A stretch of DNA of 26,897 bases from Archangium sp. (lineage in GTDB: Bacteria; Myxococcota; Myxococcia; Myxococcales; Myxococcaceae): positions 1 to 26,897 of the forward strand of contig JANLPS010000548.1 in assembly GCA_031367385.1 (NCBI GenBank), read 5' to 3'. Each line of letters begins with the position of its first letter. The first letter of the stretch is position 1. The notes under the pieces were generated by a model. It worked only from the letters and a program-made list of their open reading frames with translations, was not told the origin of the DNA and searched no databases. The translations under genes and the position numbers were made by a program. Below, one piece after another: positions 2,972 to 7,520 of the stretch.

Positions 2972-5900
2972 TTAAAGACACAGGCCGAGCAAGACGCTCT
3001 GGTAGGTCTGCACCAGCTTGGGCCCGATGCCGGTGACGTTTCGCAGCGCGGCCGGGGTGGTGGGCCGGGCGTCTGCGAGCGCGACCAGGGCCCGGTTGGT
3101 CAGCACTCGAAATGCGGGCACCCTGCGGCGACGGGCCTCTTCGAGTCGCCACGCGCGCAACCGCTCGACCAGGGCTGCACTGGGCCCGCCGGTGGGTAAG
3201 GTCACCGGGCGAAGGGCTCCTGCTGTCTTCACTCGCTGGCGCCGGTTCGACTTTGGTTTTCGCGCCGCCCGCTTGGAGGGTTTGGCCAAGGGCACGGCGA
3301 GCTCGACGCCCCGGGCGCCGTGGGCTGCGCGGCCCACCGGGTAGAGGCGGTGAAAGCCGATGGTCTGCCCGTTCTTCTCGAACGTGGCGTCTTCGACCCG
3401 CACCAGCCCCGCGCGGCGCAGCCCGGTGACGAACCGCTCGAATTGAGGCCGTGCGGTGGGTGCCTCGCCCAACACCTCGCGGCACAGCCGGCCGCTGGCC
3501 TGCCCCGGGTCATCGACGATTCGGCGGAGCACCTCGTCGAGCTGCGCGTGCTCGGCGGGCGACGGGGCGGCCACGAGCGCGCCGATGCACGCTTTCGGGG
3601 CGCAGACATCACAGCGCCCGCAGGCACCGGCCGTGTCGGCGTCGTCTCCGAAGTGGCGTACCAACGCGACCATGCGGCACCCGTGGCCCGAGGCGAACCT
3701 GGCGACCAGGTTGAGCTGCTCGACGCGACGCGCGCGCTGTGCGGCATACGGCGCCGGCCAATCGTCGTGGCCTTTGACCAGCTGATCTTCGGCGACTCCG
3801 TGAACGCCGCCGTGCACCCAGAGCTTCTCGAGCGCTTTTTCGAAGTCGTCGACCTTGACCCGGGTGCGCTTGCGGAGCGCCTCGGCCTGTTGCGGCACGG
3901 CATCGAGCGCGCGGGCCAACGTGCGCAACACCTTCGGGTCGGGGTAGTCGCGTTGCAGAAAAAATTCGTGGGTCTTGCGGTCAGCGAAGTGGTGCATCAG
4001 CAGCGCGCGAGAGGGCTTGGCGTCGCGACCGGCGCGGCCGATCTCCTGGTAGTACGACTCGATGCTGCCTGGCAGGGCGAGGTGCACGACGGTACGAATG
4101 TCGGCTTTGTCGACCCCCATGCCGAACGCGACGGTGGCGACGACGACGTCGAGGGCGCCCGACAAGAACGCCGTCTGCACGGCGTCGCGCCGCTCGGCCG
4201 ACAGGCCCGCGTGGTACGCCTCGACCCGGTGAGCGCCAGACAGCTCGTCGGCCACCGACTGGGCGAGCTTGCGGGTGGGTGCGTAGACGATGGCGGGCAA
4301 CCGGCCGGGCCCCGCGAGCCAGCTTCGGGTGAGCGCGGCGCGCTGGGTGGGGCTCACTTCGACCGCTTCGATCGCGAGGTTCTCGCGTCGAAACCCGTGA
4401 ATGAAGCGCTTGGCACCGGCACCGAGGCCGAGCTGCTCGATGATGTCGTGCTGAACGATGGGTGTGGCTGTCGCCGTCAGCGCGACCACGGGGGCCGGCC
4501 GCAACGAGGGCAAGCGTTGACCCAGCAAGCGGTAATCGGGCCTGAAGTCATGGCCCCACTGCGAGATGCAGTGCGCCTCGTCGATGGCGATCAACGCGAG
4601 CGGCCGCTTGGCCAGGAGCGCCGAGAAGCCGGGCACCCCGAGGCGCTCGGGCGCGATGAAGAGGTAGTCGAGGCGACCTTCGAGGTAGTCGGTGCACACC
4701 GCGCGAGACTCGAGCCGGTTCCGGCCGGAGTGAATGCGCTCGGCGCGAAGCCCCAATGACTGCAGGCGAGCGACCTGGTCTTCCATCAAGGCGATCAGGG
4801 GGCTGACGACGAGCGTGGTGCCGCCTCGGGCCAGACCGGGCAGCTGGTAGCACAGCGACTTCCCCGCGCCGGTGGGCATCACCAGGAGGAGGTCATGACC
4901 GTCGGCCGCCGCCTCGCAGACGGCGCGCTGGTGGGGGCGAAATGAAGAGAACCCGAAGGTGCGCCGGAGGTGCTCGTCGAGCGAGACATTCGGCGGGCGG
5001 GCTCGATCGGTGCTCTGTGAGGCCGCGGCGCCGAGGCCGGGTTTTGCTTCGAGCCCCGGCGCGGTGACTCGTGGCGTCGCGGCAGGGCCAGTCGTGCTGG
5101 TGTCGCGAGCGCCCAATTGCACGGCGCGTGAGCCCGACAGTTGAGCGACCTCGGCGACTCGAAGCGTCGCGCCCGTGCCAGTCGTGCTGCTTTCTCTGTC
5201 AGCGGATTGCAAGGCGCGTGACCCGGGCGCCTGAGCGACCCCGGCGACTCGAAGCGTCGCGCCCGTGCCAGTCGTGCCGGTTTCGCGAATGCCGAATTGC
5301 ACGGCCCGTGACCCCGACGGTTGAGCGATCGCGGCGGCTGTTCGCGCCCGACTCACGCCAGCACCGCCCAGGGCTGGCGTCGCATTCGGCACGCGCGAAC
5401 CGCTCGCCGAGCGCGGGGCTCGAGGAGGGCCGCCCGGGGGCGCACCACCCAACGGCGGCAGGGTCGGAGGCACCCGGCCAACCACCGCCCTCACATACGC
5501 CTCGACCCGCTCGACGAAAGGCCCCAACGCTTCGTGACCTCTGGCGATGCGTTGAAGCCGCGCCTCCCATTCGCCCGTCATCGCGGCGCTCTTCACCTCG
5601 GCGTCGACCACCGCAATCAACCCGATGCCCCGTTCGGTTGGCTGCAGCACCTTGCCGTCGCGACACACGTACTGCCGGGTGAGCAACGTCTCGATGATGC
5701 TCGCCCGTGTCGCAGGGGTCCCCAGACCGCTGTCCTTCATCGCGTCGGAGAGCTCTTTCTCGTCGAGCGTCTTGCCGGCGGTCTCCATCGCGGTGAGGAG
5801 CATCGCGTCGTTGAACCGCGGCGGAGGCCTCGTACGCCGCGCCAGCACCTTCGCGTCGAGCACCCGCTGTACCTGGCCCTCCGCGAGCCCAGCCGGCAGC

Positions 5901-7288
5901 ATCGCCTCGTCACCCTCCTCGTTCTTCTTCTCACGCGGAGGCTTCGCGTCGCCCAGGTCGAGCACCTTCCACCCGAGGTGCTCGATGGCGGTACCGTGAC
6001 TTCGGTAGTGGTCAACCAACCCCGCATCGTGAAGGTCGGTCACCACGACCGTCGCCGCCCAGACGAAGTCGTCATGCCAGGCCTGCAACAGCCGCCGGCA
6101 CACCAGGTCGAATACCCGCCGCTCGTCAGCGCTGAGCGAACGGCCCGCCGCCGACACCGTGGTGGGTATGATCGCGTGGTGATCACTGACCTTTGCGTCA
6201 TCGACGAAGCGCTGGCTCAGAGCCCTCACGCCCGTCTGCGGCGCGAGGTTTGCCTCATACGGAGCCCGAATGACCGCGACCACCGCCGGCAGCGTGCCCC
6301 CCACCTCGAGTGAGAGGTGGCGGCTGTCGGTGCGCGGGTAACTGATGACTTTGTGCCGCTCGTAGAGGGCTTGCGCGACCTCGAGCGTGTGTTGGGCCGA
6401 AAACCCGAAGAGCCGGTTGCAGTGCCGTTGCAGCTCGGTGAGATCATAGAGCAGTGGCGCCGGCATCTTCTTGGTCTGCGAGCTCACCGACGCGACCCGC
6501 GCCTCACCGCGGAGCGCCCGAGCGACGATGTGTTGCGCCCGTTCACCACTTTCGGGCAACCGGGTTGGGTGCTCGGTGGCCTTTGCGTCGAACCAGGTGC
6601 CCTTGTACGCGCTCGTCGTATTCGCCGCGAAGGTCGCGACGACCTCGAGATACGCCTGGGGCACGAAGTCGCGAATCGCCAGCTCTCGCTCGACCAGCAT
6701 CGCCAGCGTCGGAGTCTGCACCCGCCCGACTGACAACGGCGCGGTCAGCGCGAGACCGTAGGCCCGCGACAAGTTCATGCCCACCAGCCAGTCGGCCCTG
6801 CTCCGCCCGGCGGCAGCGTTCGCGAGCGCGTCGAAATCAGCGGCGGGGCGCAGCGCCCGAAACCCCTCGCGAATCGCGTTCTCGGTGAGCGACGAGACCC
6901 ACAACCGTTGCACGGGTTTTCGGCAGCCGGCTGCCTCGGCGATGAGCCTGAAAATCAGCTCGCCTTCTCGGCCCGCGTCGGTCGCGCAAATGACCGAGGT
7001 GACCTGGGGGTCGTTGAGCACGCGGCGCACCACCTCGAACTGGCCTCGCGTCGCCTCGAACACCGTCAACGGCCACCGAGAAGGCAGCATCGGCAGGTCT
7101 TCGCGCCGCCAGCGCCGCCATTCGGGGCGAATGCCTTCGGGCTCGGCCAACCCGACCAGGTGGCCAATGGCCCAGGTGACGATGTAGCCGTTGCCCGTGA
7201 GCGTACCCTCGCCGCGGCGGGTGGCGCCGAGCACGGCCGCAAGGTCGCGGCCAACGGAGGGTTTTTCAGCGAGAACGGCGATCGTCAT
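2972..7288 (-). CDS. topB: DNA topoisomerase III (type IA) fused to RecQ-family ATP-dependent helicase with Zn-binding and HRDC domains
   Basis: Topoisomerase motifs: LAEKPS, ATDAGREGE (TOPRIM), GRVQTP, ISYPRTDS (catalytic Tyr), HHAIIPT, GLGTPATRA. RecQ motifs: MPTGAGKSLCYQ, DEAHCISQWGHDFRPDY, TATA, ATVAFGMGVDKADIR, YYQEIGRAGRD, CR...CGRCDVC. C-terminal HRDC: LRAWRLEEARRRRVPAFRVLTNRAL...GIGP. One uninterrupted 1438-aa frame. Confidence 0.95.
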   Translation of the reverse strand: MTIAVLAEKPSVGRDLAAVLGATRRGEGTLTGNGYIVTWAIGHLVGLAEPEGIRPEWRRWRREDLPMLPSRWPLTVFEATRGQFEVVRRVLNDPQVTSVICATDAGREGELIFRLIAEAAGCRKPVQRLWVSSLTENAIREGFRALRPAADFDALANAAAGRSRADWLVGMNLSRAYGLALTAPLSVGRVQTPTLAMLVERELAIRDFVPQAYLEVVATFAANTTSAYKGTWFDAKATEHPTRLPESGERAQHIVARALRGEARVASVSSQTKKMPAPLLYDLTELQRHCNRLFGFSAQHTLEVAQALYERHKVISYPRTDSRHLSLEVGGTLPAVVAVIRAPYEANLAPQTGVRALSQRFVDDAKVSDHHAIIPTTVSAAGRSLSADERRVFDLVCRRLLQAWHDDFVWAATVVVTDLHDAGLVDHYRSHGTAIEHLGWKVLDLGDAKPPREKKNEEGDEAMLPAGLAEGQVQRVLDAKVLARRTRPPPRFNDAMLLTAMETAGKTLDEKELSDAMKDSGLGTPATRASIIETLLTRQYVCRDGKVLQPTERGIGLIAVVDAEVKSAAMTGEWEARLQRIARGHEALGPFVERVEAYVRAVVGRVPPTLPPLGGAPPGGPPRAPRSASGSRVPNATPALGGAGVSRARTAAAIAQPSGSRAVQFGIRETGTTGTGATLRVAGVAQAPGSRALQSADRESSTTGTGATLRVAEVAQLSGSRAVQLGARDTSTTGPAATPRVTAPGLEAKPGLGAAASQSTDRARPPNVSLDEHLRRTFGFSSFRPHQRAVCEAAADGHDLLLVMPTGAGKSLCYQLPGLARGGTTLVVSPLIALMEDQVARLQSLGLRAERIHSGRNRLESRAVCTDYLEGRLDYLFIAPERLGVPGFSALLAKRPLALIAIDEAHCISQWGHDFRPDYRLLGQRLPSLRPAPVVALTATATPIVQHDIIEQLGLGAGAKRFIHGFRRENLAIEAVEVSPTQRAALTRSWLAGPGRLPAIVYAPTRKLAQSVADELSGAHRVEAYHAGLSAERRDAVQTAFLSGALDVVVATVAFGMGVDKADIRTVVHLALPGSIESYYQEIGRAGRDAKPSRALLMHHFADRKTHEFFLQRDYPDPKVLRTLARALDAVPQQAEALRKRTRVKVDDFEKALEKLWVHGGVHGVAEDQLVKGHDDWPAPYAAQRARRVEQLNLVARFASGHGCRMVALVRHFGDDADTAGACGRCDVCAPKACIGALVAAPSPAEHAQLDEVLRRIVDDPGQASGRLCREVLGEAPTARPQFERFVTGLRRAGLVRVEDATFEKNGQTIGFHRLYPVGRAAHGARGVELAVPLAKPSKRAARKPKSNRRQRVKTAGALRPVTLPTGGPSAALVERLRAWRLEEARRRRVPAFRVLTNRALVALADARPTTPAALRNVTGIGPKLVQTYQSVLLGLCL
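5061..5330. repeat. Three degenerate tandem 90-nt repeats (30-aa units) in the TopB-RecQ linker
   Basis: Units are 5061-5150, 5151-5240 and 5241-5330. Copies 2 and 3 share an identical 36-nt stretch, cggcgactcgaagcgtcgcgcccgtgccagtcgtgc. The protein unit is roughly VAQxxGSRAvQxxxRexxTTGtgATlRV. Confidence 0.9.
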
Positions 7289-7453
7289 ACGTCGCGCAGG
7301 TGTACCTCAGGGGTCTGACAGGTGCTCTTCAGACATCGACACCGAACGACACCGAACCCGGGCGCCGGCCACCGAGGGGCTGGCTGGTTCTCCCTTCGCC
7401 GCGCCGCGCGGGCCCATGGTCAGGCTCCCCCGGCTGGGCGGAGCACCCGCGCT

Positions 7454-7520
7454 TTGACATGTCGAATTTTATAATCATGATTATAATCATACATGCCATA
7501 TGCATGACTTATTTATGCAA
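7454..7520. promoter_or_regulatory. AT-rich palindromic element, copy 1, in the divergent topB-recQ / MBL intergenic region
   Basis: Perfect 18-bp palindrome TTATAATCATGATTATAA (7469-7486) overlaps a perfect 14-bp palindrome ATGATTATAATCAT (7477-7490), followed by ATATGCATG (7498-7506). It stands out sharply against the GC-rich background. The regulatory role is inferred. Confidence 0.6.

Follow-up and report, generated by a model that had tools for sequence, protein, structure and literature searches.

A topoisomerase III–RecQ-family helicase fusion in Archangium and its relatives: a candidate damage-induced unlinking enzyme behind a PafBC-type promoter element

A 26,897-nucleotide (nt) stretch of Archangium sp. 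DNA (contig JANLPS010000548.1 of assembly GCA_031367385.1, hereafter the window) holds a gene in which a RecQ-family helicase and a topoisomerase III are physically joined as one chain, as a single-chain dissolvasome would require. By the best reading of its domains, the fusion belongs to the TopB and RecQ families and would work like the RecQ–topoisomerase III partnership. It is reasonably probable that it serves as an accessory enzyme that unlinks DNA and is probably induced by damage, with topoisomerase III on a tether to its RecQ-family motor. Judged from sequence, the fusion is old and common among the host's relatives, and the PafBC-type promoter element predicted ahead of its gene is new here.

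A first-pass annotation had described one frame of 1438 amino acids (aa) joining TopB to RecQ, with a low-complexity linker of about 165 aa, a Cys4 zinc motif and an HRDC domain, and had proposed a set of Pfam searches. The frame was confirmed to be open, and both enzyme families score over their NCBIfam cut-offs. All six domains searched for were matched, in the order Toprim (5-133), Topoisom_bac (153-588), DEAD (784-942), Helicase_C (999-1088), RecQ_Zn_bind (1183-1229) and HRDC (1371-1435). The linker has the length described, and Pfam and residue conservation bear out the zinc motif and the HRDC domain. Coordinates are collected in Table 1.

Table 1 Parts of the fusion gene and its promoter element, in positions of the window
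Feature	Positions	Strand	Remarks
Whole gene TopB - linker - RecQ - HRDC	2972..7288	(-)	1438 aa, ATG start, no internal stop
Topoisomerase III (TopB) catalytic core, aa 1-606	5471..7288	(-)	Pfam, NCBIfam, E. coli Topo III alignment
Low-complexity A/P/S/R/G/T linker, aa 607-771, 165 aa	4976..5470	(-)	Sequence composition
Three in-frame 90-nt (30-aa) linker repeats	5062..5339	(.)	76-83% identity to reference copy
RecQ-family SF2 helicase core, two RecA folds, aa 772-1112	3953..4975	(-)	
Subfamily insert, aa 1113-1185, three helices + hairpin	3734..3952	(-)	Predicted structure
Cys4 zinc-binding subdomain (C1204, C1223, C1226, C1229)	3590..3733	(-)	
RQC-type winged helix, long beta-wing, F1303 near tip	3314..3571	(-)	
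Basic K/R-rich flexible segment, net charge +11	3188..3313	(-)	Low pLDDT
HRDC domain	2978..3187	(-)	Pfam
PafBC-type promoter element TGTCAG-N10-TA (-26 element + start of -10 box)	7303..7320	(-)	

The N-terminal half is a topoisomerase III of the TopB type, and catalytic activity is predicted. It scores 552 bits with the NCBIfam model topB TIGR01056 (cut-off 515.75) and 653 with NF005829 (cut-off 597), but only 178 with the topA model (cut-off 456). Its 606 aa align full-length to E. coli Topo III (E 3e-88; Topo I, E 4e-24). The catalytic Tyr of the YPRTDS motif is Y317 (codon 6338-6340), followed by P318; a Pro directly after the catalytic Tyr is described as a criterion for topoisomerase III (PMC10969213). 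All 51 divergent fusions compared share residues E8, D104, E108, Y317, R319 and H370 without variation. The intact topoisomerase seen at first pass, with TOPRIM acidic residues and YPRTDS, is thus upheld with one refinement: the acidic motif is D-A-G-R-E instead of DxD, the second Asp being replaced by Gly, and this D-A-G form is common to 13 of the 14 stand-alone TopB comparators. At aa ~503-520 (5729-5782) lies an insert that corresponds to the decatenation loop of E. coli Topo III and is equally long.

The helicase half shows all features of the RecQ family, i.e., superfamily 2 (SF2) motifs, an aromatic-rich loop, the Cys4 zinc site, a winged helix and HRDC. It scores 358.5 with recQ_fam TIGR00614 (cut-off 219.8). 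Walker A is placed at K810, DEAH at 903-906 and the aromatic-rich loop at W911-R916, and motif VI is present; K810, D903/E904/H906, the loop, motif VI and the four cysteines are invariant in the same 51 fusions. With an AlphaFold2 model of this half (predicted local distance difference test, pLDDT, 92.9; predicted template modelling score, pTM, 0.84), the top Foldseek match was 4tmu, a bacterial RecQ. The full RecQ core claimed at first pass therefore holds at the level of the family, but not for canonical RecQ, as the equivalog TIGR01389 reaches 442.6, below its cut-off of 640.2, and the helicase falls in a separate clade. By these sequence comparisons, it is a subfamily of its own, distinct from canonical RecQ.

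Between RecA2 and the zinc site, this subfamily carries a helical insert of ~70 aa absent from solved bacterial RecQ structures, which by its secondary-structure pattern alone, and not by a separate fold search, looks winged-helix-like. The RQC-type winged helix was missed by Pfam and is visible in the structure model. Near its wing tip, F1303 is F in 45 of 51 fusions and a gap in six; in the model, the long wing with its conserved aromatic recalls the WRN wing tip. The wings of bacterial RecQ winged helices are reported not to unwind (PMC4212688). Among 120 close homologs, 83 lack the winged helix, and all 83 keep the insert. These winged-helix-less fusions (P0017, P0022, P0032 and 80 more) form a large branch, many of them named Polyangiaceae or Myxococcales, in which zinc site and HRDC are kept as well. 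The same helicase subfamily also occurs behind a Ser/Thr protein kinase that replaces the topoisomerase (P0266, with Sel1 repeats, and P0269), and P0298 carries DUF790 ahead of a related helicase core.

Two other identities were examined by family scores and rejected. The PADLOC model PDLC02865 (1499 positions, labelled DpdF) matches the fusion at 1656 bits, as if it were a DpdF-type helicase of a deazaguanine DNA-modification or defence system. There is next to no probability of this, since the NCBIfam DpdF model yields 216 against a cut-off of 550, DpdA is found in none of five fusion-carrying genomes, three neighbouring frames have no PADLOC match and no neighbours are conserved beyond family synteny. 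Defence-system annotations may, by the same match, mislabel the fusion as DpdF. A reverse-gyrase-like enzyme for ATP-driven supercoiling would likewise unite a helicase and a type IA topoisomerase in one chain, as reverse gyrase does (PMC7245102). It is very improbable here: with TIGR01054, the score of 98.5 is far below the cut-off of 471.7, the domains come in the opposite order, no latch-sized insertion is found inside the RecA folds relative to RecQ, and the linker is long and variable. The contrast with reverse gyrase drawn at first pass was borne out by this score and order.

The two halves are joined by a segment of 27-296 aa (median 88.5, n=120), which is rich in Ala, Pro, Ser, Arg and Gly and without conserved sequence. 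Its GC content at third codon positions is 0.71, compared with 0.84-0.90 in the folded domains. Because length varies this widely without conserved sequence, the linker reads as a leash or tether, not an interface. The first-pass statement that the protein hard-wires the RecQ–topoisomerase III partnership is therefore retained in the sense of covalent tethering, not in that of a rigidly coupled machine. The alignment (44 effective sequences for 1200 columns) is too shallow for inter-domain covariation.

Read support across the linker, which the first-pass annotation had wished to see, was obtained in part. In public contigs from four runs (two studies), the gene is covered without indels and both linker borders are bridged. 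The contigs break at the three linker repeats, and none of those listed crosses the entire linker, so the exact length lacks independent proof. All four runs show an A>G difference at 4528, which is synonymous (TTG/CTG). Because of the breaks within the repeats, the main evidence for the fusion comes from orthologs. Topoisomerase and helicase Pfam families occur together in 120 of 120 listed homologs, one of them identical to the query, and HRDC in 119. Each of the 23 single-contig genomes with a match has an open frame (1304-1748 aa), and the seven retrieved all have the full architecture. Among the matches listed, an open frame of at least 1200 aa is present in 110 of 124 fusion-clade genomes, a set that leaves out the unpublished genome G186; in the other 14, contig ends, a frameshift and a truncation were seen among those inspected. 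Misassembly or read-through was rejected given the open frames in single-contig genomes and the invariant catalytic residues of the 51 divergent fusions.

The earlier guess that similar fusions might exist in myxobacteria was confirmed by the survey. The topoisomerase half is matched in 144 of 301 genomes of the phylum and in 113 of 140 genomes of the host's family, nearly always as a single copy (both tallies include G186). It was not found in the remaining 27 family genomes, nor in most other families searched. Beyond Myxococcota, the fusion occurs at named loci in Acidobacteriota and Oligoflexus; it is retained across at least three phyla, to ~40% identity. In databases, the fusions and their homologs are named simply 'DNA topoisomerase 3'.

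In a topoisomerase tree, 52 fused sequences and three derived forms make up one clade against 14 other TopB proteins (SH-aLRT, Shimodaira–Hasegawa-like approximate likelihood ratio test, 100). The helicase tree likewise places 54 fused, 38 stand-alone and three other rows in one clade (SH-aLRT 99); canonical RecQ and the second RecQ of the host fall outside it. Between the two trees, distances are correlated (rho 0.85). Both are quick LG+G4 trees with small outgroups, one of which includes an unrelated row, L028_12357, outside the 38. Stand-alone helicases without genomic context may be fragments created by frameshifts; where upstream DNA was available, no topB was seen in it. Since both halves form single clades, the trees suggest that one old fusion followed by repeated loss of the topoisomerase fits best. 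A mobile-element origin was rejected, as none of the plasmid records (best 5000 counted) or phage records (67) covers 80% of the protein, and no neighbour genes are conserved beyond synteny in close genera.

The first-pass annotation had also asked whether the host possesses stand-alone recQ and topB. A second RecQ is present but no other topB: the fusion is the only TopB-type gene in the host genome (98% complete). The host further has TopA, two type IIA A subunits and RuvC, and the fusion is therefore regarded as accessory. Two type IIA A subunits were found in five of five genomes, whether the fusion is present or not, and RuvC in five of five genomes tested. As the sole TopB-type gene, kept in single copy by nearly all family members with a match, the fusion could be imagined as a housekeeping decatenase of replication, clearing precatenanes or completing converging forks in every cycle, and E. 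coli Topo III does act at forks (PMC10969213). We regard this as quite improbable. Twenty-seven of the 140 family genomes, and most other families searched, gave no match to the fusion, the type IIA A subunits accompany it or do without it, and its promoter is of a damage type.

The promoter, which the first-pass annotation had missed, points to DNA-damage repair over routine decatenation. Its PafBC-type element stands 14 nt ahead of the fusion ATG, from which we infer a near-leaderless transcript, and it matches the PafBC consensus tGTCgg(N10)tA(N3)T (PMC8635444) save for the final T. Of 54 genomes of the phylum, which as kin are not independent, 35 have it no more than 250 nt upstream of their fusion-clade gene. 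With spacers of 8, 9, 11 and 12 instead of 10 it was found in 0, 1, 0 and 1 of the 54 genomes, and it was found upstream of none of 13 other topB genes. In the host genome, a gene starts 8-16 nt downstream at 19 of 47 TGTCAG-N10-TA sites, compared with 9 of 191 for other spacers. By our own classification, 10 of 27 other genes behind the motif are repair genes, as opposed to 3 of 36 controls (p=0.01; 37 controls were sampled, and one that duplicated a motif gene was dropped). The ten encode RecN, RecJ, RadA, SSB, DprA, an ImuA/RecA-like protein, an Mre11-like nuclease and PD-(D/E)XK, GIY-YIG and DEDD nucleases. In another genome (G006), the motif again precedes radA, dprA and an exonuclease gene (three of eight scanned).

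A candidate regulator is also encoded in the host, namely a pafB/pafC-like pair of overlapping WYL genes (G000:C47:42521-44457). In the alignment of its PafB-like member with M. smegmatis PafB (7p5x, E 2e-21), the RxFER recognition helix is conserved, and PafBC structures are the best structural relatives of the pair. Tandem WYL pairs occur in five of five genomes. In M. xanthus, the pair MXAN_1359/1360 is described as mitomycin C-raised and LexA-controlled, noted but not investigated, and myxobacteria are known for LexA-independent damage responses (PMC12288472). No study of a PafBC regulon in Myxococcus was found in the open literature. A myxobacterial PafBC-type damage regulon comprising recN, recJ, radA, ssb, dprA, an imuA-like gene and parA is probable. 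A motif site also heads a gene ~2.6 kb upstream of the pafB/pafC-like pair.

Other observations concern the same promoters. A LexA box in the window promoter was rejected; what we take to be the M. xanthus consensus did not fit (spacing 6, not 4), and a perfect palindrome occurs at one host site only. In six genomes (L109, L110, L114, L116, L120, L124), CTGAAC-N4-TGTCAG overlaps the PafBC-type hexamer upstream of the fusion, and in six others (L017, L129-L131, L136, L145) CTGAAC-N4 palindromes stand alone. They presumably resemble the M. xanthus LexA box and suggest dual or swapped control. A cGAS/DncV-like nucleotidyltransferase gene (SMODS) lies right behind TGTCAG-N10-TA at L288 (G132:C1:6937104), a possible damage-linked promoter of a cyclic-oligonucleotide-based antiphage signalling system (CBASS). 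IS91-like (Y2) transposase genes follow the element by 10 nt at G000:C410, C475 and C92 (two by Pfam, the third by its similar N-terminus), which suggests damage-induced transposition. Finally, a sigma-70-like promoter in an AT-rich patch of the window (7454-7481, (+)) faces divergent metallo-beta-lactamase-fold and glycoside hydrolase family 1 genes.

In the proposed mechanism, single-stranded DNA derived from damage would activate the PafBC-like pair, which would switch on the fusion gene together with recN, recJ, radA, ssb and dprA. The helicase would then bind a branched intermediate (a D-loop, a Holliday junction, or a stalled or converging fork) via its winged helices and HRDC. It would unwind it with ATP in the 3'-5' direction, as is the rule in the RecQ family. 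The leash would hold topoisomerase III beside the exposed single strand, which would be cleaved through Y317 to let the other strand or duplex pass, for an unlinking without crossover. The tether would thus replace the co-localising role that SSB has for the separate E. coli enzymes.

Several findings weigh against this proposal. The decatenation-loop equivalent is neutral to acidic (net charge -2, range -3 to +3), while that of E. coli Topo III is reported to carry positive charge and to be required for decatenation (PMC8191776). The 38 stand-alone helicases are interleaved with the fused ones in their clade, which speaks for frequent separation, and at L161:5363-7945 (G009) an 861-aa derivative keeps topoisomerase, promoter element and winged helix without helicase and HRDC. 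For one in vivo phenotype in E. coli, the gene with which topB cooperated was recG and not recQ (PMC13244152). As for the promoter, the final T of the PafBC consensus is missing in the window (TACACC), most host sites have T or C at this position, and the element precedes none of seven Acidobacteriota fusion loci. The A-only form of the motif was picked post hoc; with A and G forms together, repair genes number 11 of 43 as against 3 of 36 (p=0.07). In the closed genome G132, none of ten translated motif-led frames matched a core repair family, crude start calls being limiting. Moreover, the damage-proteomics supplement for M. xanthus contains no 'topoisomerase' entry. MXAN_1950, a 'RecQ' raised by mitomycin C in that species (PMC12288472), could not be established as the fusion: the paper gives no architecture, and closed relatives have separate RecQs of ~700 aa. 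It was not used as evidence.

The separations raise the alternative of a fusion of convenience, in which both enzymes are active but independent, and a shared damage promoter and a fixed 1:1 ratio are all that is gained. Common, interleaved stand-alone helicases would be expected under it, as would an unconserved linker with elevenfold length variation and the fusion of the same helicase to protein kinases and DUF790. We nevertheless consider it rather unlikely, because the fusion is kept in at least three phyla to ~40% identity with correlated trees, and RecQ and Topo III are documented to cooperate as separate proteins (PMC11894792, PMC8191776).

The opposite alternative is a true single-chain dissolvasome, with docked and allosterically coupled domains and, as its main substrate, double Holliday junctions that would be dissolved without RMI1. 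The HRDC domain and the long aromatic-tipped beta-wing recall WRN/BLM, not bacterial RecQ (PMC4212688), the conserved insert could be a docking surface, and the promoter type is common with recombination genes. This is distinctly unlikely. Linker length is variable, the insert is kept in stand-alone helicases too, most close homologs lack the winged helix and RuvC is present in all five genomes tested. No RMI1-like domain was found in the chain by Pfam; the rest of the genome was not searched for an RMI1-type OB (oligonucleotide/oligosaccharide-binding) fold. The accessory, leashed enzyme remains the favoured reading. A bolder reading is tentative and, in our view, rather unlikely. The fusion would be a second, independent helicase–type IA topoisomerase machine beside reverse gyrase, a one-chain dissolvase that needs neither RMI1 nor SSB bridging to dissolve double Holliday junctions and D-loops. 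It would act as an effector in a PafBC 'sigma adaptation' damage regulon, hitherto undescribed, that myxobacteria and actinobacteria have in common.

The mutual stimulation of RecQ and topoisomerase III was called elusive in a 2021 review (PMC8191776). The fusion family offers a natural 1:1 single-chain version of this pair. Its natural variants, with linkers from 27 to 296 aa and forms without winged helix, without topoisomerase or without helicase, open the question of coupling to direct tests by biochemistry, single-molecule methods and cryo-EM. Separately, the promoter result predicts a damage regulon run by an unstudied myxobacterial PafB/PafC-like pair. The first-pass remark that no biochemical characterisation was known still applies: a search of the open literature, with subscription papers and preprint supplements outside its scope, found no paper on a topoisomerase III–RecQ fusion. 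In their available text, two surveys of type IA C-terminal domains (PMC10969213, PMC9369019) do not mention RecQ, and that of PMC9369019 does not mention 'helicase' either.

Among known systems, E. coli RecQ, TopB and SSB involve the same two enzyme families, and the helicase half folds like bacterial RecQ. In E. coli, RecQ and Topo III are reported to resolve converging forks via SSB (PMC11894792). The fusion differs as one chain in place of two proteins bridged by SSB, by its PRK07726-type TopB, whose TOPRIM motif is D-A-G and whose loop is not basic, by its distinct helicase subfamily with the ~70-aa insert and by the PafBC-type promoter of its gene. In the eukaryotic BLM-TOP3A-RMI1/2 and Sgs1-Top3-Rmi1 complexes, an HRDC-bearing RecQ-family helicase is likewise held to topoisomerase III by a disordered segment, which in Sgs1 is the N-terminus (PMC3905885). 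The fusion, in contrast, is covalent, contains a bacterial TopB and has no RMI1-like OB-fold in its chain by Pfam.

The same two families also meet in Listeria as adjacent recQ and topB genes, 23 bp apart. These are separate genes in opposite order, and the pairing is independent because both proteins fall outside the fusion clades. The record of the Listeria monocytogenes locus (L172:3477-7426) is filed as a plasmid and carries chromosomal genes such as guaB. The putative promoter element is comparable to mycobacterial PafBC (RecA-NDp) promoters, with a GTC-containing hexamer, a 10-nt spacer, TA and repair genes behind, and the host has adjacent PafB-like and PafC-like WYL proteins as mycobacteria do. 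It differs by TGTCAG instead of TGTCGG, by a -10 box whose final T is often missing and by its phylum. Reverse gyrase, lastly, has been called the unique helicase–topoisomerase fusion (PMC7245102) and shares with the present protein the natural union of an SF2 helicase and a type IA topoisomerase. Unlike it, the myxobacterial fusion has the opposite domain order, no latch, a flexible tether and the intact zinc site, winged helix and HRDC of a RecQ helicase.

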